From a virus (Duplodnaviria; Heunggongvirae; Uroviricota; Caudoviricetes), in the IMG/VR virus record IMGVR_UViG_2778261223_000007, positions 12,132 to 76,131 of that record: a DNA stretch of 64,000 nucleotides, one strand, 5' to 3'. Below, in pieces: positions 1 to 34,693 of the stretch. How positions within the stretch are numbered: position 1 is the first letter of the stretch; the number at the start of each line of letters is the position of its first letter. Below the pieces are notes generated by a model that was not told where the DNA came from, did no database searches, and saw only the letters and a program-made list of their open reading frames with translations. Both the position numbers and the translations under genes were made by a program.

Positions 1-1
1 T

Positions 2-1948: not shown

Positions 1949-1953
1949 TAAAG

Positions 1954-3755: not shown

Positions 3756-3765
3756 TGAGGTTAGC

Positions 3766-4611: not shown

Positions 4612-4646
4612 TAATTCCTCCCCCGCATTTGGGGGAAGAACAACGG

Positions 4647-4667
4647 AAATCACAAACTGAGCATACT
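4647..4667 (+). promoter_or_regulatory. candidate late promoter AAATCACA-AACTGAG-CATACT
   Basis: One of 8 copies of AAAT(C/A)ACA-N7-YAYNNT. The -10 ends 39 nt before the R start codon. Confidence 0.55.
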
Positions 4668-4705
4668 CTCCTTTGGTTCATTGCTTATGAAGGAGCTATG
4701 TTCGT

Positions 4706-5152: not shown

Positions 5153-5154
5153 TT

Positions 5155-8154
5155 ATGGGGGCTGATAAAACGAACAACATAATGACACTATCCTCTGGTG
5201 TCTCACAGCCTTTGCTTGCTGATGTTCAATATTTCGAACTCTATAGTAGTTCGGCTCTTAACAGAAAACTTAAAAATATTGTTTTGCCTGGCTTTTACTG
5301 TGGATTTGAACCAGTTCCCGGCACAGGGTTGAGTGTTCGTATAACTTCTGAAAACTCAGAAGGTAAAGGGGCTGCTTCAGTAGATGTAAATAATGTTCAG
5401 ATATCCGTTCAGCAAATAGAAGATGTGACTGTCTCGGTAAAGGCTGGGGCTACCAACATTATTGTGCTGGAAGCCAATTTTGAACATGGTGTAAAAACGA
5501 CACAGGTAGATAGCGCATCTTCTGTCAGTGCTGCAAGAATTTACGCGCGTACGGACAATACTATTGGGCAGAATCAAATTGAATTATGTCGAGTTATCGT
5601 GCCTAACGGCGCAACGGCTGTGACTAAAGAAATGATTGTGCTTAAATACCGGGTTAACCGTGCTGTTGGTGTCGAATTCTCTAATGAAATAAGCAGTACA
5701 GAAGAAAGAAAAGCGGCTACACCTCTGGCTGTCAAAACTCTCCATGATTTGGTTGATACAAAAGCTCCGCTCGATAGTCCGCATCTGTCAGGTACGCCGA
5801 CTTCGCCGACACCTGAACCCGGTACAAACAACACACAGATCGCAAATGCGGCCTTTGTCTATGCTGCTATAAATGCGCTTATCAATGGTGCTCCGGGAAC
5901 GATGGACACGCTGAAAGAAATAGCGGCTGCGATCAATAACGACCCGAATTTCAGCACAACTATCAACAATGCCCTGGCTCTTAAAGCTCCTTTGGCAAGC
6001 CCGGCGTTCACAGGTACGCCGACAGCACCTACGGCCTCACAAGGCACAAATAGCACGCAGATTGCAAATACAGCCTTTGTTAAGGCAGCTATAACGGCAC
6101 TTATCAACGGTGCGCCTGGCACACTGGATACGCTGAAAGAAATAGCGGCTGCGATCAATAACGACCCGAATTTCAGCACAACTATCAACAATGCCCTGGC
6201 TCTCAAAGCGCCTTTGGCAAGCCCTGCATTAACGGGTGTCCCTACTGCGCCGACCGCCGCACAGGGCACAAATAATACGCAGATTGCTACGACCGCTTAT
6301 GTAAGAGCTGCCATATCCGCATTGGTTGGTTCATCACCAGAAGCTCTTGATACCCTGAATGAGCTTGCCGCAGCACTTGGCAATGACCCGAACTTTGCGA
6401 CAACAATGACAAATGCGCTGGCAGGCAAACAGCCTCTGGATGCAACTTTAACCGCGCTCGCTGGCCTTGCGACTGGTGCAAACAAACTGCCTTATTTCAC
6501 CGGTAAGGATACGGTAGCGCAGACTGATTTAACGTCAGTCGGTCGCGATATTCTGGCTAAAACAAGCACACTGGCCGTTATCCAATACCTTGGTTTAAGA
6601 GAACTCGGTACCAGTGGTGAAAAGATCCCCCTGTTGAGTACGGCTAACACATGGAGTGCGCGCCAGACTTTCAATGGCGGGATCACCGGGGCGCTGACAG
6701 GGAACGCCGACACCGCGACGAAATTGAAAACAGCCATAAACATTAATGGCGTCAGGTTCGATGGTTCGGCTGACATTAATATCAATACTCTGGTATCGCG
6801 TGGTCGCGTAACGGCTCTGGGGGCGAATGCACAGGGGACATCCGGGATTCAGCTGTATGAGGCATACAACAATGGCTATCCTTCCCCCTATGGCAATGTG
6901 CTTCACCTTAAAGGTGCCACCGCTGCTGGCGAAGGTGAATTATTCATTGGCTGGAGTGGCTCGAGCGGTGACCATGCGCCCGTACATATCCGTTCGCGGC
7001 GTGATACTGATTCTGCCAACTGGTCTGAATGGGCACAGGTCTATACGTCAAAAGATTCAGTTCCCGGCGTTAATGCCAAAGGGAATCAGGATACCTCTGG
7101 TAATGCGGCTACAGCGACCAAATTGCAGACGGCGTGTACTATCAACGGTGTCTCGTTTGATGGTTCTAAAAACATTGAGCTAACGGCGGAAGATTTAAAT
7201 CTTGAGCAAACCGTAGAATTAGCCGCAGGAGCATTGCAGAAAAACCAGAACGGTGCAGATATTCCGAATAAAGATAAATTCATACAAAACACAGGGGCCT
7301 GTCGTGCATTTAGCGGTCAGACTGATATCGATGGTTCACAAGGTGAATGGTCGACAGTTGCATTTATCTCGTGGCTGGAGAATAACGGAGCTTTCCGACA
7401 TCCATACTGGATGTGTAAAGGGTCATGGTCCTATGCCAGAAACAGGGTTATTACGGATACCGGTTGTGGAAATATCTGCCTTGCCGGAGCCGTGATTGAG
7501 GTTATGGGAACCCGCGGCGCAATGACCATACGCGTTACCACGCCGAGCACGTCCAGCGGTGGCGGAATCACTAACGCTCAATTCACTTATATTAATCATG
7601 GTGATGCTTACGCTCCTGGCTGGCGACGAGACTACAACACGAAAAACCAGCAGCCTGCATTTGCTTTAGGGCAAACAGGACGCAGGGTCGCAAATGATAA
7701 AGCTGTTGGCTGGAACTGGAATAGCGGCGTTTATGATGCAGATATCAGTGGCGCATCGACATTAATCCTCCACTTTAATATGAATGCGGGGAGTTGCCCT
7801 GCTGTACAGTTCCGCGTGAATTACAGAAATGGCGGTATCTTTTATCGTTCAGCGCGTGATGGTTATGGCTTTGAAGCTAACTGGTCAGAGTTTTACACCA
7901 CAACACGCAAACCCTCTGCGGGAGATGTTGGTGCATATACGCAGGCAGAATGTAACTCAAGGTTTATTACAGGTATTCGCCTTGGCGGTCTGTCATCTGT
8001 TAAGACATGGAATGGTCCTGGCTGGTCTGACAGGTCAGGTTATGTCGTTACTGGTTCAGTTAACGGAAACCGTGATGAATTAATTGATACAACTCAGGCA
8101 AGGCCAATTCAGTATTGCATTAATGGAACGTGGTATAACGCGGGGAGTATTTAA
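5155..8154 (+). CDS. S: tail fibre protein S (constant part fused to the currently expressed variable part Sv)
   Basis: ATG 5155 with a GAGGG SD overlapping the R stop (the ORF track uses TTG 5149). N-terminus ADVQYFELYSSSALNRK resembles P1 S. Contains fibre collar repeats, and the ORF crosses the cix site at 6578-6603. Confidence 0.9.
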   Translation: MGADKTNNIMTLSSGVSQPLLADVQYFELYSSSALNRKLKNIVLPGFYCGFEPVPGTGLSVRITSENSEGKGAASVDVNNVQISVQQIEDVTVSVKAGATNIIVLEANFEHGVKTTQVDSASSVSAARIYARTDNTIGQNQIELCRVIVPNGATAVTKEMIVLKYRVNRAVGVEFSNEISSTEERKAATPLAVKTLHDLVDTKAPLDSPHLSGTPTSPTPEPGTNNTQIANAAFVYAAINALINGAPGTMDTLKEIAAAINNDPNFSTTINNALALKAPLASPAFTGTPTAPTASQGTNSTQIANTAFVKAAITALINGAPGTLDTLKEIAAAINNDPNFSTTINNALALKAPLASPALTGVPTAPTAAQGTNNTQIATTAYVRAAISALVGSSPEALDTLNELAAALGNDPNFATTMTNALAGKQPLDATLTALAGLATGANKLPYFTGKDTVAQTDLTSVGRDILAKTSTLAVIQYLGLRELGTSGEKIPLLSTANTWSARQTFNGGITGALTGNADTATKLKTAININGVRFDGSADININTLVSRGRVTALGANAQGTSGIQLYEAYNNGYPSPYGNVLHLKGATAAGEGELFIGWSGSSGDHAPVHIRSRRDTDSANWSEWAQVYTSKDSVPGVNAKGNQDTSGNAATATKLQTACTINGVSFDGSKNIELTAEDLNLEQTVELAAGALQKNQNGADIPNKDKFIQNTGACRAFSGQTDIDGSQGEWSTVAFISWLENNGAFRHPYWMCKGSWSYARNRVITDTGCGNICLAGAVIEVMGTRGAMTIRVTTPSTSSGGGITNAQFTYINHGDAYAPGWRRDYNTKNQQPAFALGQTGRRVANDKAVGWNWNSGVYDADISGASTLILHFNMNAGSCPAVQFRVNYRNGGIFYRSARDGYGFEANWSEFYTTTRKPSAGDVGAYTQAECNSRFITGIRLGGLSSVKTWNGPGWSDRSGYVVTGSVNGNRDELIDTTQARPIQYCINGTWYNAGSI
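5764..6429 (+). repeat. three tandem 222-bp (74-aa) tail-fibre repeats inside S
   Basis: Unit APLxSPxxTGxPTxPT..GTNxTQIAxTAFV..LINGAPGTLDTLKEIAAAINNDPNFSTTINNALALK. Units 1 and 2 are near-identical at DNA level over about 120 bp (5878 versus 6100, offset 222). Confidence 0.9.
6578..6603. other. cix recombination site inside S (TTATCCAATACCTTGGTTTAAGAGAA)
   Basis: 26-bp Hin/Gin/Cin-type crossover site, inverted relative to the copy at 10843-10868. Sequence homology between the two arms begins exactly here. Confidence 0.85.
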
Positions 8155-8156
8155 TT

Positions 8157-8690
8157 ATGATGCACTTAAAAAATATTACTGCTGGCAACCCTAAAACAAA
8201 AGAGCAATACCAGCTAACAAAGCAATTTAACATCAAATGGCTTTATTCAGATGATGGAAAAAACTGGTATGAGGAACAAAAGAATTTCCAGCCAGACACT
8301 TTGAAAATGGTCTATGACCATAACGGCGTTATTATTTGTATTGAAAAGGATGTTTCAGCAATTAATCCGGAAGGCGCAAGCGTCGTTGAATTACCTGATA
8401 TTACAGCAAATCGCCGGGCTGATATTTCGGGTAAATGGATGTTCAAAGATGGCGTAGTGATAAAGCGAACTTATACCGAGGAGGAACAGAGGCAGCAGGC
8501 AGAGAATGAAAAGCAAAGCCTGTTGCAACTTGTCAGGGATAAAACCCAGCTATGGGACTCACAGCTACGGCTGGGTATCATTTCCGACGAGAATAAACAA
8601 AAATTAACCGAGTGGATGCTCTATGCGCAGAAGGTCGAATCCACAGACACCTCCAGCCTGCCAGTAACGTTTCCAGAACAACCAGAATGA
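8157..8690 (+). CDS. U: tail fibre assembly chaperone U
   Basis: 177 aa. N-terminus [22 protein letters not shown] is paralogous to U' on the opposite strand. Confidence 0.8.
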   Translation: MMHLKNITAGNPKTKEQYQLTKQFNIKWLYSDDGKNWYEEQKNFQPDTLKMVYDHNGVIICIEKDVSAINPEGASVVELPDITANRRADISGKWMFKDGVVIKRTYTEEEQRQQAENEKQSLLQLVRDKTQLWDSQLRLGIISDENKQKLTEWMLYAQKVESTDTSSLPVTFPEQPE

Positions 8691-8693
8691 AAC

Positions 8694-8720
8694 AAGGCCC
8701 GCTATCGGGCCTTAATTTTT
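8694..8720. terminator. hairpin between convergent U and U'
   Basis: AAGGCCCG-CTAT-CGGGCCTT followed by AATTTTTA. Confidence 0.6.
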
Positions 8721-9249
8721 ATTCAGGCTTTTGTGGCCATTCAGGATTTGCCGTATCCACACGGCTGACCAGAACACTATAGCGTTCCCATGACTCCAGT
8801 CGTGCGCGTTCCTCATCCGTCGCCATATTCAGCCTGACAGCGCGTTCCAGTGGCTGAATAACGTTTTCTGCTTCGGAAAGTAACGCGGCCTTTTGTGATT
8901 CGGCCTGTTGTTGTTGCTCGTCTGCCGTATAAATCCGTTTAACCACAGCTCCGTCCTTAAACATCCACTTCCCTGAATCATCGGCACGACGATTGGCTGT
9001 TATATCTGGAATCTCAACGACGCTAAAGCCTTCGGGATTAAGCGTTGAGGCATCTTTGGTTATGGCAACAATAATATTATTTTCGTCGTATACAATCTTT
9101 ATGGTGTCGTCCTGAAAGTTATTTACTTCTTCATACCAGTTTTTACCGTCTTCGGACCATAACCAGATAACATCAAAATTCTTTGTTAGCTGATATTGTT
9201 CTTTCGTTTTAGGATTTCCAGACTTAATATTTTTTAAATGCTGCATCAT
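8719..9249 (-). CDS. alternative tail fibre assembly chaperone U'
   Basis: 176 aa, paralog of U ([23 protein letters not shown]); silent in this orientation. Confidence 0.8.
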
Positions 9250-10857
9250 TTACACCTGTGCGACGTTATACCATGTGCCATTGATGTATTTTTGTATTGG
9301 CCTGAAGATGGCTTCATCATCGCCATCTACTTCACCAATGATTCTTAATCCGGTAATTGCGTGTCCGGCTTTTTCATAACGACCACCACGCGCCATCAAT
9401 TGAACAACACGTGTGCCAAGTCGGACATCTCTCACATAGCGTGAGTCAAAATTGCCATAATTGCCGGGAATAACTTGCGCACCACAAAGCCAGTTACCGT
9501 TATTATCCATGTACGCCTGACCATCGGTGCCATTGGCTGTCCTTGAGTTATTAATCATGTAGATGCCAAATTGCTTGTTCCCCAGTCCACCTATCATGAA
9601 CTTTCGGTCGGCGTGATTCTGGCGAAGTAACGCCTGAGCGCTATCAGTGTTAACTATATTTTTCCCAAAGATAGCGTTGTTATCGCGCATCTGAATCCAC
9701 ATACCATTACTGCTGTTAATAGCAAAACGGTCTGAAAGTGTCTCCCCTGAAACATTAAGACCACGTCCCATCGAAACAGCGCCAGTAGCGTTATTAATCC
9801 ATAATGGCCTTAATCCGTTATAAGTCCCCATGTTGTCACCGGAGTTTGTCAACATGAAGTATGTATTTGAACCATCATTACGAATAAAGAATCCGTAATT
9901 ACCATAAGCAATACGTAGGCCGTTTGCTGATTTTGATATGACTTCGCCATTTACAATGGCATTGACAAGAACATACAAAGCATCCCATTTAAGATTCATC
10001 AGGTCTTTTGTTGTGGTACTTTGTTTGCTTCTCCATTTGAAATATTCATTGCCGTTGTCGCCTGTCTCAAACCACATGTATGAATCAGTATCGCTGTCGG
10101 CATCATTTTTAAAACCAATCTTCGCCCAGTCAGTATTCCGAATCCAGGCAAGGATTGAGTCGTTTTCAAAAGTAAGTCCACCGGACAAGGTATCGCCTGT
10201 CTTTTGAACCGCGTTATCAGCCTTGTTTACCGTTTCCTGTAGATTTAAATCTTCCGCCGTTAGCTCAATATTTTTAGAACCGTCAAACGAGACGCCGTTG
10301 ATAGTACATGCTATCTGCAATTTGGTCGCTGTAGCCGCATTACCAGAGGTGTCCTGATTCCCTTTAGCATTGACGCCGGGAACTGAATCTTTTGACGTAT
10401 AGATCTGTGCCCACTCGGACCATGCCGCAGCAGTGCTATCTCTTTTGGATCGAATGAAAGCAGGTGCATGAGCGCCATTTGTGCCACTCCAGCCAATGAA
10501 TAACTCACCTTCGCCAGCAGCGGTGGCACCTTTAAGGTGAAGCACATTGCCATAGGGGGAAGGGTAGCCATTGTTGTATGCCTCATACATCTGCAATCCA
10601 GTAGCAGCACCTTGCGTTGTACCGGTAAGCGCAGTAACGCGTCCTCTAGACGTAATTGTTGGTATCGAAATGTTCGTAGAACCATCGAACCTGACGCCAT
10701 TAATGTTTATGGCTGTTTTTAATTTCGTCGCGGTATCGGCGTTCCCTGTCAGCGCCCCGGTGATCCCGCCGTTGAAAGTCTGGCGTGCACTCCACGTGTT
10801 AGCCGTGCTCAACAGGGGGATCTTTTCACCGCTGGTACCGAGTTCTCTTAAACCAAG
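9250..10857 (-). CDS. alternative tail-fibre variable segment Sv' (no promoter or start of its own)
   Basis: Reading frame runs in frame up to the cix site. Its first roughly 200 aa parallel Sv (STANTWSARQTFNGGITGALTGNADTATKLKTAININGVRFDGS...). It would fuse to Sc after inversion. Confidence 0.85.
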   Translation of the reverse strand, partial: LGLRELGTSGEKIPLLSTANTWSARQTFNGGITGALTGNADTATKLKTAININGVRFDGSTNISIPTITSRGRVTALTGTTQGAATGLQMYEAYNNGYPSPYGNVLHLKGATAAGEGELFIGWSGTNGAHAPAFIRSKRDSTAAAWSEWAQIYTSKDSVPGVNAKGNQDTSGNAATATKLQIACTINGVSFDGSKNIELTAEDLNLQETVNKADNAVQKTGDTLSGGLTFENDSILAWIRNTDWAKIGFKNDADSDTDSYMWFETGDNGNEYFKWRSKQSTTTKDLMNLKWDALYVLVNAIVNGEVISKSANGLRIAYGNYGFFIRNDGSNTYFMLTNSGDNMGTYNGLRPLWINNATGAVSMGRGLNVSGETLSDRFAINSSNGMWIQMRDNNAIFGKNIVNTDSAQALLRQNHADRKFMIGGLGNKQFGIYMINNSRTANGTDGQAYMDNNGNWLCGAQVIPGNYGNFDSRYVRDVRLGTRVVQLMARGGRYEKAGHAITGLRIIGEVDGDDEAIFRPIQKYINGTWYNVAQV

Positions 10858-10868
10858 GTTTAGGATTG
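10843..10868. other. cix recombination site next to cin (TTCTCTTAAACCAAGGTTTAGGATTG)
   Basis: Inverted partner of 6578-6603; shares the core TTCTCTTAAACCAAGGT. Confidence 0.85.
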
Positions 10869-11420
10869 AAATGATGATGCCGGAAACTTCTTATAAAGCG
10901 TGGAAACAGCCACATCATAGATGATTGCAACCTGCTTACGAGGGATGCCCTTCTCCAGCAATCGCCGCATTTGCTGCCATGTTTCTTCTTGGTATTTAGG
11001 CCGACGCCCACCTATACGACCTTCTGCGCGAGCTGCATCAAGTCCAGCGCGTGTACGTTCAATGATAAGCTCACGTTCCATTTCTGCCAGCGCACCCATT
11101 ACGTGAAAGAAAAAGCGCCCCATTGGTGTACTGGTGTCGATGGAGTCAGTGAGACTCCGGAAGTTAATGCCTCTGTCACGCAGCTCTTCCACCAGCACAA
11201 CCAAGTGACGCATGCTGCGCCCAAGGCGATCTAACTTCCATACGACCAGGGTGTCACCTCTGGAAAGAATACGCAGAACCTTTTTTAACCCTGGGCGTTC
11301 AGCCTTTTTGCCGCTCGCCTTATCCTCAAAAATTAGCTCACATCCTGCGCTTTCAAGGGCGTTTCGTTGTAAAGCGGTGTTTTGGTCATTAGTTGATACG
11401 CGAATGTATCCAATAAGCAT
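10860..11420 (-). CDS. cin: serine DNA invertase Cin
   Basis: 186 aa. MLIGYIRVSTNDQ..GDTLVVWKLDRLGRS resolvase/invertase catalytic domain plus a C-terminal HTH; adjacent to cix. Confidence 0.95.
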   Translation of the reverse strand: MLIGYIRVSTNDQNTALQRNALESAGCELIFEDKASGKKAERPGLKKVLRILSRGDTLVVWKLDRLGRSMRHLVVLVEELRDRGINFRSLTDSIDTSTPMGRFFFHVMGALAEMERELIIERTRAGLDAARAEGRIGGRRPKYQEETWQQMRRLLEKGIPRKQVAIIYDVAVSTLYKKFPASSFQS

Positions 11421-11423
11421 ATG

Positions 11424-11448
11424 TCCCCCCTTGTATGTTAAGGGGGGA
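11424..11448 (-). promoter_or_regulatory. hairpin in the cin 5' leader that pairs the G6 Shine-Dalgarno run with a C6 run
   Basis: mRNA sense reads TCCCCCC-TTAACATACAA-GGGGGGA-CAT-ATG. Confidence 0.4.
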
Positions 11449-11472
11449 GATTCTAGAAGATGTCCTGTAAGG

Positions 11473-11493
11473 AAATAACAAACTGACTAAGTT
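11473..11493 (+). promoter_or_regulatory. candidate late promoter AAATAACA-AACTGAC-TAAGTT (dar operon)
   Basis: Motif copy 33 nt upstream of the first dar-operon start codon. Confidence 0.5.
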
Positions 11494-11525
11494 AGTGGCG
11501 CATTAGATGTTATTTCTGGAGGGGT

Positions 11526-11852
11526 ATGTTTGCAGATTATGAAAATCTGGCTGTAGTAGTCATAACATCCCTACTAAGTGGAACCGGCGTATTCCTTCTC
11601 GGAGTTAGAGACGGGCGCATTTCTGCGTCCCTGCTCAATCTTGCGAGTGAATTGTTTACTGCGGTAACAGCCGGGCTTGCGGGGTATGGGGTGGCGGTTA
11701 GCCAAGAATGGCCTGAAGGTATCATTTTCTGCGTTGTTCTGATTGCCAGTAACAACGGTAGTGAAATTTTACAGGGCTTGAAGTCCAGAGCTAGTAACGT
11801 CTTGAATCTCTTAAGCGTAATAGCGAATGGGGGAAAAGGTGGAGAGAAATAA
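11526..11852 (+). CDS. holin-like small membrane protein (LydC position)
   Basis: 108 aa with about three hydrophobic helices; first gene of the darA-type operon. Confidence 0.45.
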   Translation: MFADYENLAVVVITSLLSGTGVFLLGVRDGRISASLLNLASELFTAVTAGLAGYGVAVSQEWPEGIIFCVVLIASNNGSEILQGLKSRASNVLNLLSVIANGGKGGEK

Positions 11853-12298
11853 TGGGTAACTTTGGAAATTATTTCATTTTTATCATGGCATTTGTTGCCA
11901 TCATTGACCGTTTCATTTTTCGTCGCAAGAGTGTTGAGATTTTGAGTATTGGTGACGCTGTAGTGAAAGAATCCGCTATAGCATTTCCTGTTTCGCTACG
12001 TGTTAAGCGAAGCTGGGTGAGCAATGCTCAAATCGAATATTGGTTGCAAGACCTGAAAAATCCATCTGTGGTTATTTCAGGGAAAACGCGACCAGTTGAC
12101 GCCTCAAAACGCGGTGAGAGAGAAGAGTATTTGCTCATCGATACGAAATATCTTGAGCCAACGAAGTGGGATCTGAAAGTCACATTGACTAACGGTAACT
12201 GCCGACTGAATCCGCTTTATCGCATTTTCCCTATCAATGACTGCATAGAGCGCCAATTTACGATCGAAAAGCGTGAAGGAGACTGGGATGTCAAATAA
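11852..12298 (+). CDS. membrane-anchored protein (LydD position)
   Basis: 148 aa with an N-terminal TM helix (NYFIFIMAFVAIIDRFIF); ATGA-type overlap with the upstream gene. Confidence 0.4.
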   Translation: MGNFGNYFIFIMAFVAIIDRFIFRRKSVEILSIGDAVVKESAIAFPVSLRVKRSWVSNAQIEYWLQDLKNPSVVISGKTRPVDASKRGEREEYLLIDTKYLEPTKWDLKVTLTNGNCRLNPLYRIFPINDCIERQFTIEKREGDWDVK

Positions 12299-12908
12299 AA
12301 ATAATTATGTTCTTCTTAATTATGATGAGTTAAACGAAAAGGGGCTGTCAAAACTCGTCAAAGAAATCAGCAAAGGTGGTTACAAGATAGCGAGGGTGAT
12401 CCCTGCAAGTAATGGCAGGAAGAAAGATGGGATCATGACGCGCACGTTTACCCTTATTGGTATTGATGAACAGACAATGGAAGTTCAGGTTAACGATACC
12501 GGTGATATATCTGGGATCAAACTGAATGGTAAAACAGTACCGTTCAAGCCAGTAAAAACAATGTCGGCTTTGGGGCAATCTCTTGCGGCTTTATTTAATC
12601 GTGGAGCAACTTCTTTCCAGAAGTCACTAGCTCGAAAACTTGCTCGTGCAGCAAAAAATATTGATGACGGAAATAAGAAGCGGCAGGGAGTTAAATCTAA
12701 CGCTCAGAAATTAGCTGAAGCGAAAGAATCACGTGATGCACTCCGTGAAGATATCGCTAATGCTAACGACAAACTGTCTAAACTCCAGAGCAAGTCAGAC
12801 AAAGTAATGCAAGATACGGGTAATGTTAAAGCTGCCTTGTCTCAGGAAGTAGCTAAGACACGTGCTCTTAAAGAAGAAATCGCGCGCCTGGAGGATGAGC
12901 ATGATTAA
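12288..12908 (+). CDS. hdf: Hdf-like Dar-system head protein
   Basis: ATG 12288 preceded by GAAGGAG (the ORF track starts at 12273). Coiled-coil C-terminus; directly upstream of darA. Confidence 0.5.
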   Translation: MSNKNNYVLLNYDELNEKGLSKLVKEISKGGYKIARVIPASNGRKKDGIMTRTFTLIGIDEQTMEVQVNDTGDISGIKLNGKTVPFKPVKTMSALGQSLAALFNRGATSFQKSLARKLARAAKNIDDGNKKRQGVKSNAQKLAEAKESRDALREDIANANDKLSKLQSKSDKVMQDTGNVKAALSQEVAKTRALKEEIARLEDEHD

Positions 12909-14838
12909 CAATCCTTTACGAATTAATATTCAGTCTACTTTTGCTGATACGATCCCCGGCTATATGCCAAGTCGCTGGTCTTCAGAAGAATTAAGCGAAG
13001 ATGACCTGATTTTTGAGGCGGCGACCTTAGAAGATATTGAGCTTGCCTATATGGGCAATGAAATTCTGGTTGTGTCTGACGAAGCTATGTTTGAGTCCAT
13101 AACTACAACCAGAATTCGGTTAGCTCAAACAATGCGAGCTTTCGTCCGTGCGCTGAATCGTGGCCTGAATGGTACGAATATTATGGCAGGGACTGATGAA
13201 GCTGGGACCGATGAAAATGGACGTAATTGTATTGGTGGTGCGATTATCGGTCGTGTACGTCGGGTAGCTAATATCCCCGTTTTGACCGCGCAGATACCGC
13301 TTACTGACGGGCAGAGTACAAGCATAATTTTCCACTCTCCAACAGCTGACGGGGCAAAAATAAAGAGTAACGACGAGCTTGTTGCATTTCAGTTTTTACT
13401 TAATAAGCGTAACGTAACTCACGTTGTCGCCCCGATTGGTGGGAGAGATGTTTCTTTAAACCAGGTATGCCAGGCGCTATCTAATTTGATTGAGCGTAAC
13501 AGCGAAAAATTTAAGAAAGCAAAAGAGCGCCAGGACAAAATGAAGGCAGATATTGAGAGTTATCTCAATGAAGCAGATAAACTGGCAGAAGAACGGTCAA
13601 TAATGATTGATCAGGTGGAAGTTGCGCAACGAGGGCTGACTGAAAAGCGTGCTGCTCTTACGGAGATGCAAAAAAAACTTGATTCCCAGAAAGCCATCAA
13701 CGAGGAATTACAAGCAAAACGCGATAAATTGTTGTCTGCTAAAGGTGAAAAAACGAAAGAACGAGCGTTTAGTGACCAGCTGCGACATGTAAAACATAAT
13801 CTTGCCATTGACGGAAAAACAGTGCTGGATAATGGCGCTGAAGTTAATTATGTCACGTCCGGCAGTGATAATTTCGTTACGATAGTAGCACCTGAAGGTA
13901 AATTCAGTATTGATGCCAGTGCTGTCAAAGGAGGCAGTTTGGCAGATGCTGCAACCAAATTACTTAAAGCCTACCGAGAGCATAACGCAGATAAATATAA
14001 AGTTGATGTGTTACCAGGCCAGCAGGAAGACCCCGAACCACCACAGACAGACCCCGAGACGAACCCAGTATCACAACCAGAGAGCCAGGATGTAGGTAAA
14101 TACCACTATGCACTTCAATCTCGCCCGGCTGGTGTTGGTGCTGTGCCGGATGGAAATAAAGCCGTGCTTGATCGTCCTGACCAGGCTGATCAGTATTACG
14201 AATATGCTCGTCACGGTATCATTACGTATGACCGTAAACTGACAGATGAAGAAGTCAGCCAGTACGAGTTGCTCTATCTTCCTGATGAAGATGAGCTGAA
14301 AGATTTTGCAGGCCAATTGGTTGTGTCCAGCATGTCGAAACATATTGATGGCTATGTAGACCTGTTTGGCAGTGACCTGAAAACATTCAAGGCGCAAGTG
14401 AAAATTCTTTTCCGCAAAGCGTTTCCAAACGTGGCGTATCCACTTGGTGATGGGGAGAACCTTTTCATTATGGACGTATATAACGCCCTTCAAAATCATT
14501 CAAACGAAGTAACGCCAGAGCCTGAATTAGCACCTGTAGTTGAGCCAGAATCACACCCACAAACAGCACCAGAGCAACAGCCAACGCCGGAAGACGCTGA
14601 AGAAGCGGCAACTGAAGCTGATCAGGAAGCAGATAAAGCGTTGGAGTACCTTAAATCCGTCCCGGTGCAGTTTACATCTCGCGATCTGACGGTAATCAGT
14701 GCCGAACTTGACCATGTGCAGGAAGCTGCAAACGCTCTTATCAGTGCTGGTCGATACGACGAGAACGAATCAACGGTTGGCGCAGCAGTTGACTACCTGA
14801 TCAACATTCTGGCTGAAATTCAGCAGGGAGGTGCTTAA
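12901..14838 (+). CDS. darA: DarA antirestriction internal head protein
   Basis: ATG 12901 preceded by GGAGGA and overlapping the hdf stop (the ORF track starts at 12862). About 645 aa, close to P1 DarA in size; same operon context. Confidence 0.65.
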   Translation: MINNPLRINIQSTFADTIPGYMPSRWSSEELSEDDLIFEAATLEDIELAYMGNEILVVSDEAMFESITTTRIRLAQTMRAFVRALNRGLNGTNIMAGTDEAGTDENGRNCIGGAIIGRVRRVANIPVLTAQIPLTDGQSTSIIFHSPTADGAKIKSNDELVAFQFLLNKRNVTHVVAPIGGRDVSLNQVCQALSNLIERNSEKFKKAKERQDKMKADIESYLNEADKLAEERSIMIDQVEVAQRGLTEKRAALTEMQKKLDSQKAINEELQAKRDKLLSAKGEKTKERAFSDQLRHVKHNLAIDGKTVLDNGAEVNYVTSGSDNFVTIVAPEGKFSIDASAVKGGSLADAATKLLKAYREHNADKYKVDVLPGQQEDPEPPQTDPETNPVSQPESQDVGKYHYALQSRPAGVGAVPDGNKAVLDRPDQADQYYEYARHGIITYDRKLTDEEVSQYELLYLPDEDELKDFAGQLVVSSMSKHIDGYVDLFGSDLKTFKAQVKILFRKAFPNVAYPLGDGENLFIMDVYNALQNHSNEVTPEPELAPVVEPESHPQTAPEQQPTPEDAEEAATEADQEADKALEYLKSVPVQFTSRDLTVISAELDHVQEAANALISAGRYDENESTVGAAVDYLINILAEIQQGGA

Positions 14839-15212
14839 TGACTATCTCTGTTTTAGACCGTCTGAAATTGGGTAAAGAGCTATCAGATTTAATGCAGGCG
14901 CAGAAAACCGCGCCAGTATTACAACGCGTCGCCATTGGTAAGCAGATTGTCGATCTGATGCTTAAACTGGGGTTGGGTACTGCCGCTCAACCGATGTCGG
15001 AACCGCAACCACAACCACAGTCTGATCCTGTTGCAGATGAAGTTCCTAAGATAGTGACTGACTTCCTGGGCGGCGTGTTCACAAAGTCCACACAAATGGA
15101 ATTTATTGATGCGCTGCGTGGGATCTCAAACTATGTTGGTGAGTTCCTTACGTTGGAGCAGGCTAAAGAGCAGACCATAAGCTGGGTGAAAGCCAACGGT
15201 TATGCCGGGTAA
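14838..15212 (+). CDS. ddrA: DdrA-like Dar-system protein
   Basis: 124 aa; start overlaps the darA stop (TAATG). Confidence 0.5.
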   Translation: MTISVLDRLKLGKELSDLMQAQKTAPVLQRVAIGKQIVDLMLKLGLGTAAQPMSEPQPQPQSDPVADEVPKIVTDFLGGVFTKSTQMEFIDALRGISNYVGEFLTLEQAKEQTISWVKANGYAG

Positions 15213-15215
15213 TCA

Positions 15216-15237
15216 AAAGGGGGTGAAATGCCCCTTT
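15216..15237 (+). terminator. hairpin after ddrA (weak T-tract)
   Basis: AAAGGGG-GTGAAATG-CCCCTTT. Confidence 0.35.
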
Positions 15238-15256
15238 CACTTCTCTGTTCTCACAT

Positions 15257-15277
15257 AAATCACACTCTTTTTACACT
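15257..15277 (+). promoter_or_regulatory. candidate late promoter AAATCACA-CTCTTTT-TACACT
   Basis: Motif copy 30 nt upstream of TTG 15307. Confidence 0.5.
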
Positions 15278-15306
15278 CACAGCTTTCTCTATAGTTGGAG
15301 TGTATT

Positions 15307-16671
15307 TTGAACAAATCAGTTACTTCTGCGCTTTCCGAGGCCGCAGATATTAACAGCGTCATTGCTCTGGTTTCTTCATTAGAGAGGAAAGAAACACGCC
15401 TGGGGCGAAGTAGCTACGTAGTCACCAGCAAAGGTGCAGAGGTAAAGACGGCTTTTAAGGTCGTTGATGCCAGCAGTCTGATCATTTCGAACAACCTTGA
15501 CGGTACGATTAACCCGGCCTTCCCGGAAGAACTCCAACCACGAGATCGTACCCGGCTATCCAGCAAACTCCAGGTTAACCGTATTGCCTCCGATTTACGC
15601 CCGGCACAATTAACGGATTCCGGTATGAGCAGCCACGGAGCGCCGATAGTTGGTCCGGACAACGTTGTTGAATCCGGCAACGGAAGGAGTATGGGTATCT
15701 GGCGTGCCTATGAGCAAGGACAGGCGGATGAGTATCGCCAGTACCTGATCGACCATGCGAAAGAGTTTGGTCTGAATCCTGACGAAATTTCGCAAATGTC
15801 TATGCCCGTACTGGTGCGAGAAAGACTCACAGATGTAGACCGCGCTCAATTTGCCCGCGATTCAAACATTAGCGATCTGCAAGAGATGGCAGCAAGTGAA
15901 AAAGCGTATGCGGATGCGCAATTTCTCACTGAGAGCGTCATGGCGCTATTTAATCCTTCAGATGATGGAAATCTGCTGGCGCGGTCCAATGATGCGTTTA
16001 TTCGTGCGTTTTTGCGCGAAATTGGCGATACAGCGACGGCAGGCTTGCTTACTGCCGATGGGCGTCCCACGAAACAGCTTATCGATCGCATCCAGAATGC
16101 AATTTTTGCCAAAGCGTACAAGGATGAAAGGCTTGTTCGGCTGGTGTCGGAAGAGCCAGATCCGGAAATGCGTAATATCCTGATCGCATTAAATACGGCA
16201 GCCAGCGATTTTGCGCAAATGCAGTCGCTGTCTGGCGATGTTCACCATGACACGGTAACCGGACTGGTAGACGGTATAGAGCAATTGAATGGTCTGGATA
16301 AACAGGCTATTGCAGCGCTACAGGAAGCAATTAACCTTGTTCGTGAAGCAAAAGATAACGGTCAGGCAGTAGAAGAGGTGATCGCACAGCGTGGATTGTT
16401 TGGAGATAGCACTCCGGAAGCAGAAGCGCTTGCTCTGTTTATTGTTGCCAACAACCGAAGCGCTAAGCGAATGGGGGCCGCTTTCAAGAAACTGGCGCAA
16501 AAAATTAACGATGAACTTATTCACCAACAACAAGCGTTAGGCGATATGTTCGGCGGCGGAGATGTCGATCTGCGTAGCATTTTATCTGCCGTTTCTGATG
16601 AAATTGAGACTGAGTTTGGCGAAGGTAAAGGGTTAATTTTTTCTATGTTTGAGCCAACCTCTGTTGGGTAA
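15307..16671 (+). CDS. DdrB-position virion protein with a ParB/Srx-like N-terminal motif
   Basis: TTG 15307 lies 7 nt after GGAG (the ORF track starts at 15295). Motif ELQPRDRTR...VVESGNGRSMGI resembles a ParB-like nuclease fold. Shorter than P1 DdrB as I remember it. Confidence 0.4.
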   Translation: MNKSVTSALSEAADINSVIALVSSLERKETRLGRSSYVVTSKGAEVKTAFKVVDASSLIISNNLDGTINPAFPEELQPRDRTRLSSKLQVNRIASDLRPAQLTDSGMSSHGAPIVGPDNVVESGNGRSMGIWRAYEQGQADEYRQYLIDHAKEFGLNPDEISQMSMPVLVRERLTDVDRAQFARDSNISDLQEMAASEKAYADAQFLTESVMALFNPSDDGNLLARSNDAFIRAFLREIGDTATAGLLTADGRPTKQLIDRIQNAIFAKAYKDERLVRLVSEEPDPEMRNILIALNTAASDFAQMQSLSGDVHHDTVTGLVDGIEQLNGLDKQAIAALQEAINLVREAKDNGQAVEEVIAQRGLFGDSTPEAEALALFIVANNRSAKRMGAAFKKLAQKINDELIHQQQALGDMFGGGDVDLRSILSAVSDEIETEFGEGKGLIFSMFEPTSVG

Positions 16672-16796
16672 CATCAATGTAACTTAATGCTCTTTCTGTG
16701 CGTTCATCACATATCTGAAGATGGGCGCATAATTCATTTTTGTTCCTGTTTAATAATATGTAAACTAGCTGAAAATATAATGAATGAGGATAACCG

Positions 16797-17354
16797 ATGT
16801 CATCATTTACAGATTTGGTTTCAGCTCTTGCATGGCCATTGGTGTTTGTGTGGTTTGTTAATAAGTATGGGGTTGATATTAAGGAGTTAATAGTACGTCT
16901 GAGTAGATTCAAGATTGGAGTAGCTGAAGCTGAGTTTAATGCGGGACTAACCGCAGCAGAAGTATTAGCAACAGATGCATCAGTTGGGAATAGAAATATT
17001 AACAATGGTAATAATAACTCTGAATATATAAATAAAATCGCACAATTAGAGAGAATTGCTGATTTTTCACCTAGAGCTGCTATTATGGAGTCATGGTTGA
17101 TGGTAGAGGAGGCTGCCGGGCGCTCTGGTTTTATACAGGGAGGGTTAAAGCCGAAACGGAATCCAGAACTATTCATTGACTGGTTGATTCAAGAAGGAAA
17201 ACTTGAAGATTCCGCTGCTTTGCTGTTAAAACGGCTTCGCTCGCTAAGAAATGAAGCCGCGCACTTTCTGGATTTTGAAATCACCAGAAATGAAGCTGAA
17301 CGCTATATAAGACTTGCAGCGAAGGTTTCACAACTTATTGTTGATCCAGATTAG
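16797..17354 (+). CDS. membrane-anchored DUF4145-like protein
   Basis: N-terminal hydrophobic helix (LVSALAWPLVFVWFV). C-terminal SPRAAIMESWLMVEE...LLKRLRSLRNEAAHF matches the DUF4145 signature (LR.LRN.AAH). AT-rich by eye. Confidence 0.6.
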   Translation: MSSFTDLVSALAWPLVFVWFVNKYGVDIKELIVRLSRFKIGVAEAEFNAGLTAAEVLATDASVGNRNINNGNNNSEYINKIAQLERIADFSPRAAIMESWLMVEEAAGRSGFIQGGLKPKRNPELFIDWLIQEGKLEDSAALLLKRLRSLRNEAAHFLDFEITRNEAERYIRLAAKVSQLIVDPD

Positions 17355-17398
17355 TTTTACTTACTTAGCTTTGATAATTTATAACATGGAGTATAGTT

Positions 17399-17731
17399 AT
17401 GAGAAATATAATCCTGGTTTGTGCTTTATTAGCTTCTGCATCAGTTTGTGCTGCGCCCTATAAGATAAAAATCCCTTCTGATCCAAAAGCTACTTATACA
17501 GTGCTGGATATTGGTCGTGAAGGTGAATATAAAACTATCATTACAAAAAGGGAAGGCCCATCTGGGACAGCATATTCGAAGAGAATATATAATTGCATGA
17601 CAAATGAAGTGAAGTATCTTGGTTCTGGGGAGACGCTTGAACAGATGAAAAATTCAAAACCTGATCCCAAAATGGGGGGGATTGTAAGTGGTTCCATCGC
17701 TGACTATGTGGGCAGGGAAGCGTGTAAGTAA
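17399..17731 (+). CDS. small secreted protein
   Basis: 110 aa with a Sec signal peptide MRNIILVCALLASASVCA|AP; AT-rich. Confidence 0.6.
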   Translation: MRNIILVCALLASASVCAAPYKIKIPSDPKATYTVLDIGREGEYKTIITKREGPSGTAYSKRIYNCMTNEVKYLGSGETLEQMKNSKPDPKMGGIVSGSIADYVGREACK

Positions 17732-17762
17732 TCATTAACAGCACCAATAAAACTCTCCTATC

Positions 17763-17783
17763 AAATCACATACTGATTATGCT
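17763..17783 (+). promoter_or_regulatory. candidate late promoter AAATCACA-TACTGAT-TATGCT
   Basis: Motif copy 33 nt upstream of the portal start codon. Confidence 0.55.
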
Positions 17784-17815
17784 GCCGCAAAACTGGAAAC
17801 AATTTGCGGTGATTC

Positions 17816-19498
17816 ATGGCAACGAAAGACAAAAACAAAGGCTTTCTGTCAGCATTGAAGAAAGCCTTCAACGGTGGTGATGTTACGCCCGCCGATCCGG
17901 TCGTTTTTACGAGCGGGCATAGTGTCGTTGCTCGTTCCGGCCTGTCTGCTTTACGTCCAGGTATACTGGGGAGCAACAGCGATGGCATGACGAGTGCAGC
18001 AGATTCAATTTCTTTATCCGCTGAACTGCCCGGCGAGCGCCTGCAAAAGTACAACATCCTGGAAACGATGGCTAAAAGCCCGACTATCTCGACGGCTTTA
18101 AACATTCACATTGCACATGCGCTTGCGCCTTCAAAAAAAACCGGACAAGCATTCATCCTTTCGCCAAAGGATGGTTCCGATGCTGAGGCAGTAAGTAGAT
18201 GTGAAGAGTTAACCGCTGATTTGGGGGCGATGATTAATGACGGACTTCCTTCATGGGCCATGATTATGGCTATCTTTGGGGTGTCTTATGTCCGACCTTA
18301 TGCTGAACAGGGCAGGGGGATAACAGGCATTGAGTCCAGTTATTACACTCTGCCACACTTCGTCCAGGAGTTTTATCGTGGTAGCCAGCTGGTAGGTTTC
18401 AGTGGTGATTACATTCTGGATACGCATAGTTTGCGCAGAGTAATAACCGAACCGTGGAATCTGGTTTCCATGAAAAATCCCTATTGGACGCCACAGCATA
18501 AAGTTATTCCGGTTAGCTACGGCACAAAAGGGTACTCACTGTTAAGTGATCAGGCTGATAAGCCGTTAATGGAGACGCAGAATTACGGAACTTCATTCCT
18601 GGAATACAGCTATGAACCTTACCTTAATTTATGTGCTTCGCTCGCCGCGCTGAAATCAACGCGAAATAATGCAGCCAAAATTGACCGCCTGATTGCTCTT
18701 ACGACGAACACACTGGACCCGGTTAATGCGGCGAACTATACGCGTGGCGTCAGCCAGGCATTGAAGCGTCATAGTGACCTGGTGGCGCAAAGGTCGATTA
18801 ATGCCAACGCTATTCCGACTGTGCTTAACCATCTGATACCTGTTATGGGAGACGGGAAGAACGGCATCACCATTGATACGCAATCCATACCCGCAGATAT
18901 CAGTGGTATCGAAGACGTTATGTTTCACCTCCGGCAGCTTGCTGCAAGCCTCGGCATTGACGCAACAATGCTTGGCTGGGCTGATCAGATGAGCGGAGGG
19001 CTTGGAGAAGGCGGCTGGCAGCAAACTGCTATCCAGGCTGCATTGCGTGCGAACTGGATCAGACAGGCCGCCCAGCGAACTATTTATCGGCTTCTGGACA
19101 TTCACCTCGCTTATAAATACGGCAAGGTTTACACCGAAACAAACCGCCCTTATGACGTGCAATTCAACTCAATGAACACTGCTATCCAGGAAGAGGAAAA
19201 CCGAGAACTGGATGCACGCGCCAACTTTGTTGCTGTCATCTCCCAAATTATGGACCAGATCCAGAACAACCCGAAACTGGCTGGTAGCGACGCGTTTATG
19301 CGTTATCTGTTCACTGAGCAGTTGCACATCGACGATGACACTCTCAACACCATGATCAAAGAGTTTAAGGCGAATGAATCAGAGCAAAACAACGAGCATG
19401 GTATGTACGAATCCGCGCCGTTGTCGTCCGGTGACGATCCGGAAAACTGGACGCCAGAACAGTTAATAAACTTTGCAAAATTTGTGATGAGCAATTAA
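17816..19498 (+). CDS. prt: portal protein
   Basis: 560 aa; followed immediately by a protease/scaffold-like gene, the P1 prt-pro arrangement. Confidence 0.65.
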   Translation: MATKDKNKGFLSALKKAFNGGDVTPADPVVFTSGHSVVARSGLSALRPGILGSNSDGMTSAADSISLSAELPGERLQKYNILETMAKSPTISTALNIHIAHALAPSKKTGQAFILSPKDGSDAEAVSRCEELTADLGAMINDGLPSWAMIMAIFGVSYVRPYAEQGRGITGIESSYYTLPHFVQEFYRGSQLVGFSGDYILDTHSLRRVITEPWNLVSMKNPYWTPQHKVIPVSYGTKGYSLLSDQADKPLMETQNYGTSFLEYSYEPYLNLCASLAALKSTRNNAAKIDRLIALTTNTLDPVNAANYTRGVSQALKRHSDLVAQRSINANAIPTVLNHLIPVMGDGKNGITIDTQSIPADISGIEDVMFHLRQLAASLGIDATMLGWADQMSGGLGEGGWQQTAIQAALRANWIRQAAQRTIYRLLDIHLAYKYGKVYTETNRPYDVQFNSMNTAIQEEENRELDARANFVAVISQIMDQIQNNPKLAGSDAFMRYLFTEQLHIDDDTLNTMIKEFKANESEQNNEHGMYESAPLSSGDDPENWTPEQLINFAKFVMSN

Positions 19499-19511
19499 CC
19501 GGAGGGAAATA

Positions 19512-20510
19512 ATGCAATCACTGAATACTGTTACGGATCGCTTCTCCCTGGTAGAGAAAATCCGCAAACACACACCGCAGAACAACCGAAATTACGTCAT
19601 TCAGTCGGTACGAGACACATTCAACTCGCCAGAAACAAAAGAGCGTATCGCGCTGGGTGAGATGTATGGTTATTACGGTCATGGTCGCCGGGCGATGCAC
19701 TATAACAAAACGAAAAGCCTGAACTTGCCGGAAGTCTCTGTTGTGATGGTAGATGGGAAGCCTGTTGTATTGGAGAACGTGCCGTCAAACAGGACTATCG
19801 ACATTTCGATTGACGACAACGGCATTGTTACGCATACGCAGGAAATACTGGATACAGACACCGGGCGTATTGTTCAGGGCATGATTAATTCTGGTGCTGG
19901 TGGTTGGTCGTGGGCTACATCTGGTCCAGATTCATCGGTATCCCTGGTAAAGTCTTTCCACGGCTTTGATTACGTAACTGTGCCTAACTATATCAGCCTC
20001 GACAAGAAAAGCCTGATGCTTGAATCAGCAGAAGAGCGCGATGCGGCTATTCATGCAGCACTTATCGAACAAGGTTTTACCGATAACGCTGCTACGGATC
20101 TGGTTCACCACTTTTCAGCAATGAAAAATCAGCAAGCCATGCTCGAATCTGCACATCGTGAAGCCCTGGAATCAGAATTGATGCTCCTTGAAGTGGAAAA
20201 CATACAGCTTCGAGATAAGCTGCGCGCTCAAACAGCGATGATGGAAAGCCAGGGGGAAAATGCAAAGCAATGCCGCCGGATTTTGCGTGACGCTATCCAG
20301 GAAATGCCTGTTTTTATCAGCGCAGAACAGCGCCGGGCGCTTTGCCGTATGCAGTCTGAAGATGATGCCCGCATAGTGGCTGCGATGCTTGAATCTCTTG
20401 GGGCAAATGCTACTTATGGCTTACCGGTATCAGGCAAGAAAGAACCAGAGTTATCACCGAAGGAGAACAAAAACACCACCCCGTTACTCTTCGTTTCTAG
20501 AAGGGGGTGA
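19512..20510 (+). CDS. pro: prohead protease / scaffold
   Basis: 332 aa with a globular N-terminal half and a coiled-coil C-terminal half; downstream of the portal gene. Confidence 0.55.
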   Translation: MQSLNTVTDRFSLVEKIRKHTPQNNRNYVIQSVRDTFNSPETKERIALGEMYGYYGHGRRAMHYNKTKSLNLPEVSVVMVDGKPVVLENVPSNRTIDISIDDNGIVTHTQEILDTDTGRIVQGMINSGAGGWSWATSGPDSSVSLVKSFHGFDYVTVPNYISLDKKSLMLESAEERDAAIHAALIEQGFTDNAATDLVHHFSAMKNQQAMLESAHREALESELMLLEVENIQLRDKLRAQTAMMESQGENAKQCRRILRDAIQEMPVFISAEQRRALCRMQSEDDARIVAAMLESLGANATYGLPVSGKKEPELSPKENKNTTPLLFVSRRG

Positions 20511-32597: not shown

Positions 32598-32604
32598 TTG
32601 CATA

Positions 32605-32630
32605 AAAACCCGCCAATTAGCGGGTTTTTT
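32605..32630 (+). terminator. intrinsic terminator
   Basis: AAAACCCGC-CAATTA-GCGGGTTTT within a T6 run. Confidence 0.85.
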
Positions 32631-32670
32631 GTTTATTGCATCTTCCGATACCGTCATCAAACTAATAAAA

Positions 32671-32688
32671 TATGTTAGAAAACTAATT
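32671..32688 (-). promoter_or_regulatory. operator-like site TATGTTAGAAAACTAATT
   Basis: Exact core, 23 nt upstream of ATG 32711. Confidence 0.6.
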
Positions 32689-32710
32689 TAACAAAGTGAC
32701 GGGAACAGCA

Positions 32711-33919
32711 ATGAGTCAACACACTGATACTTCTAATCTGGAAATTATCTCGACAGCAATTGAAACGCTGCGCACACAAATCGCTCTTATACAGAAACGG
32801 AATCCTGGTGATGACCTGTCAAAGCGACTGCACGAGAGTGTCATTGCCACTACAGATAACCTGGTGGCGGAAATCAACAAGCTGCTTGATGATGGGGCAG
32901 TTGATTACAATAAGCTGGTGGATCAGTTTGAGGAATACCAACAAGCCGTTAATGATGGCTTGATCCGTTTTTCACAAGTCACAGGCGTATCAGCGACAGT
33001 TGAAAGCCTGGGTGATGCAGTTAATCAATTTGCCACGAATATGCGTAATGAGATCGGCAATCTGGAAGCGCGTCTTGAACAGGCAAATACACTGCGTAAA
33101 TCTGCTGAAGCCGATTTGAACCGTTACAAAAAAGACTATCCGCCCACCCTGACAAAGCGGCTGGATGTTGCGGAGAAGGATAACCGCACGCTGAAAAGAG
33201 AGCGCCGGGAACTAAAAGAGCGTTTAACCAAGCTCAATCAGCAATGCATTGATTATCAAGGCGAAGGCGTCACACTGCGTAAAAAGTTGGCTACAGCGCA
33301 GAGCATTATCGAAACATTAAAGCGAGAGTGCTCACAGCTTGGTCACGATCTGAACCGTGCTTGTGGCATGGGACAAAGACCAGAGACATTTCCACTTATG
33401 TATGACGGAAGGGATGCCATTGCCTACATCCATGAGTATCCGCACGGCCTGGTTGCGGAAACTGGGCAGCGTGGCGAAGCACTGCTGACGGCTAATTACC
33501 ATCAACAAATCAGAACCAATCGCCTGTTAACGATGGATGTGATCCCATCGGTATGGGGAACGCCGCTTTACTATCGCCTGCCGGGCTTCGAAAAGGACTG
33601 GAATACCGACATAGACGAATGTCTCGCAGATAAAATTATGGCGTACCTGGAGACGGATTTTCCGCGCTTATATCGCCGGATTATGGACTCAAAGGATGCG
33701 CCAATCGATGAATTAAAAATGCGTCCGGAGACGCTGGAGGCAATCAAGCAGACGGAGTTTGATACTGTATTCAGTGTGGCCTGCATTCCAAGCTGTTTCC
33801 ATGAAAGCATTCCGTTCATGCAAGGAGATCGTCGTCAGGAAATCATTGACGCTTGCCGGGTATGGGCGAACGAATGGGATAAGAAGAATGGGGGTGTAGA
33901 AGATCTTTACGGGAAGTAA
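32711..33919 (+). CDS. coiled-coil protein of unknown function, monocistronic and operator-flanked
   Basis: 402 aa from ATG 32711 (the ORF track uses GTG 32696). N-terminal ~230 aa are heptad-rich; the Cys-containing C-terminal domain has no motif I recognise. Confidence 0.6.
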   Translation: MSQHTDTSNLEIISTAIETLRTQIALIQKRNPGDDLSKRLHESVIATTDNLVAEINKLLDDGAVDYNKLVDQFEEYQQAVNDGLIRFSQVTGVSATVESLGDAVNQFATNMRNEIGNLEARLEQANTLRKSAEADLNRYKKDYPPTLTKRLDVAEKDNRTLKRERRELKERLTKLNQQCIDYQGEGVTLRKKLATAQSIIETLKRECSQLGHDLNRACGMGQRPETFPLMYDGRDAIAYIHEYPHGLVAETGQRGEALLTANYHQQIRTNRLLTMDVIPSVWGTPLYYRLPGFEKDWNTDIDECLADKIMAYLETDFPRLYRRIMDSKDAPIDELKMRPETLEAIKQTEFDTVFSVACIPSCFHESIPFMQGDRRQEIIDACRVWANEWDKKNGGVEDLYGK

Positions 33920-33920
33920 T

Positions 33921-33938
33921 GTGTTAGAAATCTAAAAT
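33921..33938 (-). promoter_or_regulatory. operator-like site GTGTTAGAAATCTAAAAT
   Basis: Exact core immediately after the stop of the 402-aa gene and upstream of the promoter at 33954. Confidence 0.6.
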
Positions 33939-33953
33939 CACAATTCGAATGTG

Positions 33954-33982
33954 TTGATTGTGAAGGTAACTTAACATAGAAT
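33954..33982 (+). promoter_or_regulatory. sigma70-type promoter TTGATT-17 nt-TAGAAT
   Basis: Near-consensus hexamers with ideal spacing; no ORF follows. Confidence 0.55.
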
Positions 33983-33988
33983 TTTCCT

Positions 33989-34693
33989 TGCTGGTGGGCG
34001 GTACCCACGTTTCGCTTGCTGGGCTTGATAGTCACTTATTGGTTATTGTTCGCCCACCAGCATTTAACAAATTAAAGCGTTAGAAAAGTATAGTAACGCA
34101 AGAGCACGCTTTGGCACTGTGCAGGCAAAAGTTCAGCAGGTTTAGTGCGGAAAGTGGTTTCAGAGAGAGCACTTTGCGGAGTAAACGACAATACATGTTG
34201 AGCCACGGAAGGTCTTTTTAAGGTGTTCATTGATGATGGTCCGGCAGAGAGTAACGGTACATGCTGCATCTAATCATCAATGCACATCTTCAACATTAAG
34301 GAGGCATAGGGATTTTTGTGGCGGTTACCTTTTGCCCTGAGTCTCCTTAATGTTGCAGTAATGCACCTATGCGGATGTGGCCTTGCATTGTGTCTTGAAA
34401 GAATGGGGTAAGGCCGGGGATATCCCCAGGGGGAGGCACTCCCGCTGCAACGAACAGCCACAGACGGCAGTCGAGTGATGGGAACGTGAAAAGACTTTAA
34501 ACCTCGTTATGGCTGGCGTGGCAAACGCGACAACCGAGACAGAGCGGTGACGGGCGGAGAGAGTGCCGCATCAAGAAAGAAGCCGACTTGTGATCCCTTT
34601 CAGCGGGCATTTGAAAGTGAATCCAACTCAGGCAGTCGGCTTCTTTCTTGTGTGAGATGTAGCGTATTTGCCCATCTTCGGGTGGGCTTTTTT
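33989..34693 (+). ncRNA. candidate ~0.7-kb structured non-coding transcript
   Basis: Promoter-to-terminator unit without a credible ORF. Perfect stems of 10, 10, 13 and 16 bp (see findings). Confidence 0.35.
34670..34693 (+). terminator. intrinsic terminator
   Basis: GCCCATC-TTCG-GGTGGGC followed by T6. Confidence 0.8.

Follow-up and report, generated by a model that had tools for sequence, protein, structure and literature searches.

The closest described relative of the gene studied here is pmgS of phage P1 (shtB in P7), which is situated at 82.4-83.7 kb in P1, between pmgR and pap, and not in the region of the res/mod cassette, as had been stated in an earlier note on the present DNA. [quoted passage not shown] Knock-down of P1 pmgS by CRISPRi gave an EOP of 1.2, and the gene was scored as non-essential (PMC10695390). 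Control of pmgR-pmgS by C1 operators is already known from the P1 GenBank record (AF234172), where OpmgRa/b (Op86a/b) carries the annotation "controls expression of pmgR and pmgS" and OpmgT (Op88) is found downstream. The second system of interest is lambda Ea22, the product of an early gene between exo and xis, which is oligomeric and non-essential (PMC10834534). In Ea22 (182 aa), an N-terminal part and a coiled coil are followed by a globular C-terminal domain, which is dimeric and of mixed alpha-beta type.

The DNA analyzed here, 64,000 nt in length and referred to as the window, shares 99% identity with phage D6, and the ORF at 32711-33919 (+ strand) is D6 orf9, the 402-aa orthologue of P1 pmgS. 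The locus is a known one, i.e. phage D6 sequence with a gene already annotated as a pmgS homologue. Its product matches PHROG 1660 ("PmgS-like") with residues 1-401 against positions 1-404 of the 405 in the profile (E 2.1e-146), and is colinear with P1 PmgS (AAQ14063) over residues 11-395, with 21% identity (BLASTP, E 2e-13). The homologue P0041 bridges the two, matching both P1/P7 pmgS and those Vibrio and Pseudomonas phage homologues that are also matched by the D6 protein. The gene follows directly 3' of a pmgR homologue in D6, in P1-like phage-plasmid relatives and in P1/P7. A start at ATG 32711 is favored over the GTG start of the 407-aa version in GenBank MF356679, since an MSQ start is common to nine aligned homologues of the D6 clade and a Shine-Dalgarno sequence (GGGA) is found 7 nt 5' of the ATG, in agreement with the 402 aa proposed earlier. 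No match was obtained when IMG/VR was searched with the single query P0030, and when the family alignment was used to search the word index, coiled-coil words dominated and only 15 matches were obtained. The alignments contain no stretch of 7-10 residues that is conserved. On balance, and with moderate confidence, we consider the locus as a whole to be best explained as a D6-type orthologue of P1 pmgS that is organized as its own repressor-controlled early transcription unit.

The stop codon of pmgR (32597) is located just 5' of an intrinsic terminator at 32604-32629 (+ strand), in which AAAAACCCGCC-loop-GGCGGGTTTTT forms a stem of 10 bp with a T run behind it. The folding energy (dG -15.5 kcal/mol, z -3.3) is in line with the strong terminator claimed in the earlier note, and a hairpin of different sequence is present at this position in the relatives L006, L008, L010 and L016. 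Judging from these features, transcription of pmgM-orf11-pmgR would stop here, and the terminator is predicted to insulate pmgS from that transcript. A putative sigma-70 promoter of pmgS follows at 32643-32671 (+ strand), with TTCCGA at 32643-48 as -35 and TAAAAT at 32666-71 as -10 hexamer. The -35 is weak in D6 (3/6 match) but good in the relatives. At the aligned position of the -10, L006 and L008 have TATAAT and L010 has TACAAT, and the hexamer is conserved directly 5' of the operator in four elements. A CTAAT half-site (32662-66) overlaps the left side of the D6 -10, and CTAATA-A-T is invariant in five phage-plasmids, where a TTTAC(A/T) -35 is also carried. The architecture of terminator, -10 and half-site is kept in four other phage-plasmids, the PmgS proteins of which are 25-55% identical. 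The operator-like sequence TATGTTAGAAAACTAATTT at 32671-32689 (+ strand), a putative D6 C1 operator of pmgS containing the perfect 14-mer TGTTAGAAANCTAA, begins at the last base of the -10 and spans the likely transcription start.

With up to two mismatches allowed, TGTTAGAAANCTAA is found in 15 copies in the window compared to 1.79 expected, and none of 100 shuffles reached 15. A weight matrix identified 10 sites in the window at positions homologous to P1 operators, all of which are intergenic except for one that falls in the 3' end of orf89; the two sites flanking pmgS ranked first and second, and the upstream copy (core 32673-86) received the top score of 43.6 bits. Other copies are located just upstream of c1 (42792) and lpa (38359), before repL (20524) and icd/ant (21728), in the divergent ref/orf88 region (57466), and after cre (44202), and the motif sits at or downstream of -10-like hexamers. 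No copies were found in the late structural operons (window 1-20000). Because the copies occur where P1 has its C1 operators, the motif most likely represents the C1 operator of D6. The operator sequence of D6 (TGTTAGAAAACTAA) differs from that of P1 (ATTGCTCTAATAAATTT), which fits the divergence of D6 C1 from its homologue in P1 (20% identity, E 9e-8).

This dissimilarity to the P1 operator, together with the putative nature of C1 binding, could also be taken to mean that the motif is an element of another regulator, e.g. an Lpa-dependent late promoter box, which would turn pmgS into a late gene. However, the motif precedes not only c1 and lpa themselves but also repL, icd/ant and ref, which are early genes, and it is missing from the operons for tail, baseplate, dar, portal and protease. 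It bears no resemblance to the -22 late boxes of P1 (AAGTTACTT and ATGTGACTT), whereas its placement at or downstream of -10-like hexamers is that expected of a repressor site. The late-box interpretation was rejected on these comparisons, and we regard an element of a regulator other than C1 as scarcely credible. With the motif read as C1 operator, its best copy in the window overlaps the -10 (TAAAAT) of the putative sigma-70 promoter, and since the promoter is overlapped in this way, pmgS would be kept off in the plasmid prophage and be turned on early once C1 is inactivated, mirroring Op86a/b in P1. The earlier note had likewise proposed a gene that is silent in the lysogen and expressed early upon derepression, and this proposal is supported by the motif at P1 C1-operator positions and by the Op86a/b annotation in AF234172, with C1 binding and expression timing in D6 both being predicted from sequence.

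A second operator-like site, ATGTGTTAGAAATCTAAAA, is present 1 nt after the pmgS stop at 33920-33938 (+ strand), also with a perfect copy of TGTTAGAAANCTAA (core 33922-35, 39.3 bits), and TGTTAGAAA is conserved at the same position in L006 and L010. It precedes a separate promoter-like sequence, TTGATT-17-TAGAAT at 33954-33982 (+ strand), which is conserved as TTGATT-17-TACAAT in L006, L008 and L010, and behind which the next unit follows with a leader, tRNA-Asn/Thr/Ser (all on the + strand) and tciAB. Because of this conserved promoter, the site is predicted to be the operator of the next transcription unit rather than of pmgS, and is not given a role in bracketing the gene. Of the idea that operators flank the gene on both sides, it holds that both motif copies are perfect, but the downstream copy would serve the neighboring unit. 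A monocistronic transcript is supported at the 5' end only, by the terminator at 32604-32629, and no canonical terminator is found between the pmgS stop and the promoter at 33954-33982. A long hairpin at 33989-34062 (+ strand; dG -33.8 kcal/mol, z -4.1), with a GC-rich stem of 13 bp and a branched loop but lacking a T run, occupies the position of the terminator that follows P1 pmgS (GCTGGTGG..CCACCAGC-T7), and after it comes a weaker operator-like sequence, GTTAGAAAAGTA, at 34079-34090.

D6 and P1/P7 hence share the PHROG family, the position after pmgR and C1-type operators before both the unit and the next unit, and P1 also has a hairpin after the gene. The two differ in that operators and promoter precede a contiguous pmgR-pmgS in P1, whereas in D6 a terminator splits pmgR from pmgS and the latter has its own putative promoter and operator. 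Downstream, a 1.2-kb leader, tRNAs and tciAB in D6 take the place of pap and pmgT in P1, and the whole D6 block follows darB-ulx, unlike that of P1.

Current annotation points to a different role, namely a morphogenetic protein acting as prohead scaffold, in head morphogenesis or in sheath contraction: the gene is labeled as a scaffold in MF356679, as "PmgS-like head morphogenesis" in RefSeq and PHROG, and as "sheath contraction" in the case of P7 shtB. Long helical proteins are typical of scaffolds, and the P1 operon partner pmgR is essential, its deletion leaving heads and tails unjoined (PMC9024508). These labels, however, rest on map position and not on experiment. The putative promoter of pmgS is of the early, operator type and the motif is absent from structural operons, P1 plates normally with pmgS deleted or knocked down, and PmgS is not named among the virion proteins of P1. 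In P1 no separate scaffold has been identified, and it has been suggested that this role may fall to gp23, the capsid precursor, through its N-terminal part (PMC9024508). Neither location in the head module nor late expression together with capsid, portal and protease, as would characterize a scaffold gene, is indicated for pmgS; the homologues are never located in a head/tail module in the non-P1 contexts examined, and the helix-hairpin-helix (HhH) domain described below is unexpected in a scaffold. We therefore conclude that the label is probably wrong, and largely refuted for P1, and that a morphogenetic function is very improbable. An early, non-structural PmgS is supported instead.

An AF2 model of the protein was built on 44 sequences (mean pLDDT 87) and superseded an earlier run with nine close sequences, in which residues 225-303 had pLDDT values below 50. 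According to the secondary structure of the model, aa 6-218 (32726-33364, + strand) form a helical, coiled-coil-type region of four long helices, consistent with the N-terminal coiled coil suggested previously. Residues 226-400 make up a globular part composed of a beta/alpha portion and a helical portion. The former, a middle domain comprising aa 226-315 (33386-33655, + strand), contains the family motifs H..(I/V)RT, W..P and W(P/N), and no fold match was found for it. The latter, aa 316-393 (33656-33889, + strand), is predicted to be an (HhH)2 domain like that of the RNA polymerase alpha subunit (alphaCTD), with five helices in two helix-hairpin-helix units.

Family-level profiles showed similarity to HhH families in the PDB with E-values of 1e-7 to 1e-5, and Pfam HHH_5 and RNA_pol_A_CTD were recognized in 11/44 and 7/44 family members, respectively, whereas the D6 protein alone gave no Pfam HhH match and Foldseek with the small domain gave E-values of only about 1. 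The C-terminal domain was described in the earlier note as globular, Cys-containing and impossible to assign. The model agrees with the globular character, but the cysteines are conserved within the D6 clade only and none across the family, for which reason a metal site was rejected; moreover, the gene matches PHROG 1660 (E 2e-146), and the profile comparison makes the C-terminal ~75 aa assignable to the alphaCTD-like fold. Matches to ERM, DivIVA, SMC, Rad50, JetC and LmuB in Pfam, NCBIfam and PADLOC were sub-threshold coiled-coil hits and were rejected as compositional.

The fold of the C-terminal domain is shared with the (HhH)2 modules of RNA polymerase alphaCTD, the RAD51/RadA N-terminal domain and Brr2/Hel308; in PmgS, however, a 215-aa coiled coil and a novel middle domain precede it. 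In most family members the position of alphaCTD R265 is occupied by K/R and the sequence KG(I/M/F)GxKTAxxI is present, including G-x-K-T at 296-299. In the D6 clade this is replaced by FMQGDRRQEII, a degenerate HhH, and the equivalents of R265, G296, K298 and S299 are E340, Q, D and R. The D6 HhH domain contains neither Gly-rich hairpins nor the basic DNA-contact residues, and the D6 and P1 clades have both lost the second hairpin and basic contact residues of alphaCTD. The net charge in D6 is -6 for the middle domain and -3 for the HhH domain. DNA binding by D6 PmgS is considered doubtful, since the canonical GxG is lacking, E occupies the R265 position and the charge is negative; the protein has an HhH fold, but is not a demonstrated DNA-binding HhH protein. 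The likeness to alphaCTD is one of fold only, and is not evidence of an interaction with RNA polymerase.

The genomic surroundings of the homologues point to early functions. In lambdoid prophages, where they are placed in the early exo-xis region, they follow closely on RecT/exonuclease modules: directly after a DUF3799 exonuclease and RecT in L012, directly after RecT and YqaJ in L017, and in phiARM81mr in the order RecE-like exonuclease, RecT, integrase, small ORF, PmgS-like gene. Among 36 IMG/VR prophage loci, which constitute one clade and are not independent, a YqaJ exonuclease ends just before the gene in 27, of which 25 show a RecT match upstream, and five have a RecE-type module upstream. 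DNA methyltransferases adjoin the PmgS-like genes of Vibrio phages and of L015. In all non-P1 contexts examined the homologue is thus placed in early recombination or methylase regions, while the D6 gene lies between darB/ulx/pmgM/pmgR and the tRNAs. Since no RecT/exonuclease module is present in P1 or D6, the lambdoid-prophage synteny may not transfer to them.

The same surroundings are also compatible with an anti-defense or host-takeover effector of the kind suggested in the earlier note, i.e. an early accessory protein that neutralizes host defense or reprograms the host. One version of this idea would have the alphaCTD-like domain mimic RNA polymerase or bind to it; another, by analogy with Ea22, would have the protein bias the lysis-lysogeny decision. 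Repressor-controlled, early expression suits such an effector, as does dispensability in the laboratory, which is shared with many counter-defense genes (PMC9024508; PMC10695390). In D6-like elements the gene adjoins the darB/ulx antirestriction genes, in other phages the homologues adjoin DNA methyltransferases or are located in the exo-xis accessory region, and in the D6 clade the alphaCTD-like surface is very conserved even though the DNA-contact residues are gone. Ea22, itself an early protein with coiled coil and C-terminal domain, is thought to act via a host protein (PMC10834534). On the other hand, comparison with PADLOC and NCBIfam gave no similarity to any characterized anti-defense protein, the matches (JetC, LmuB, SMC, Rad50) being coiled-coil noise, and antirestriction is unaffected in P1 lacking pmgS (PMC9024508). 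The Ea22 version is further weakened by the fact that the Ea22 C-terminal domain was missing from the PDB profile matches at E <= 0.1; homology to Ea22 was rejected, as no Ea22 chain appeared among these matches. PmgS-like genes in lambdoid prophages do occupy the position of Ea22, but PmgS has ~400 aa and an HhH C-terminal domain, and with no detectable relationship in sequence or fold the resemblance is confined to position and architecture. We hold an anti-defense or takeover role to be possible, but rather unlikely.

For the D6-type pmgS orthologue as an early unit of its own, the most likely mechanism is that PmgS acts as a cytoplasmic, non-structural protein with an accessory part in the early DNA transactions of the phage. 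The long helical region would probably mediate oligomerization, and the coiled-coil oligomer would present at least two HhH modules for docking, either to DNA or to a DNA-bound partner, near the machinery of recombination or replication. The D6 module probably binds a protein partner instead of DNA, because the DNA-contact residues of alphaCTD are replaced in the D6 and P1 clades. Both oligomerization and docking are inferred. More speculatively, and with a low probability in our opinion, the PmgS family may represent an unrecognized third component of the recombination or early DNA-metabolism modules of temperate phages, or a titrator of a host factor. A coiled-coil oligomer with alphaCTD/RAD51-N-like (HhH)2 heads could then tether DNA ends or recruit the RecT/exonuclease pair, or PmgS could alternatively titrate a DNA-bound host factor such as RNA polymerase, and the derived P1/D6-type version could have lost DNA contact while gaining a protein target and direct C1 control.

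For the family, these results imply that the scaffold/head-morphogenesis label in RefSeq and PHROGs is unsupported, and contradicted by regulation, context and published P1 knock-outs. [quoted passage not shown] Together this provides a concrete and testable idea of what pmgS, one of numerous P1 genes without assigned function, may do, and a candidate accessory factor for RecT-based recombineering systems.

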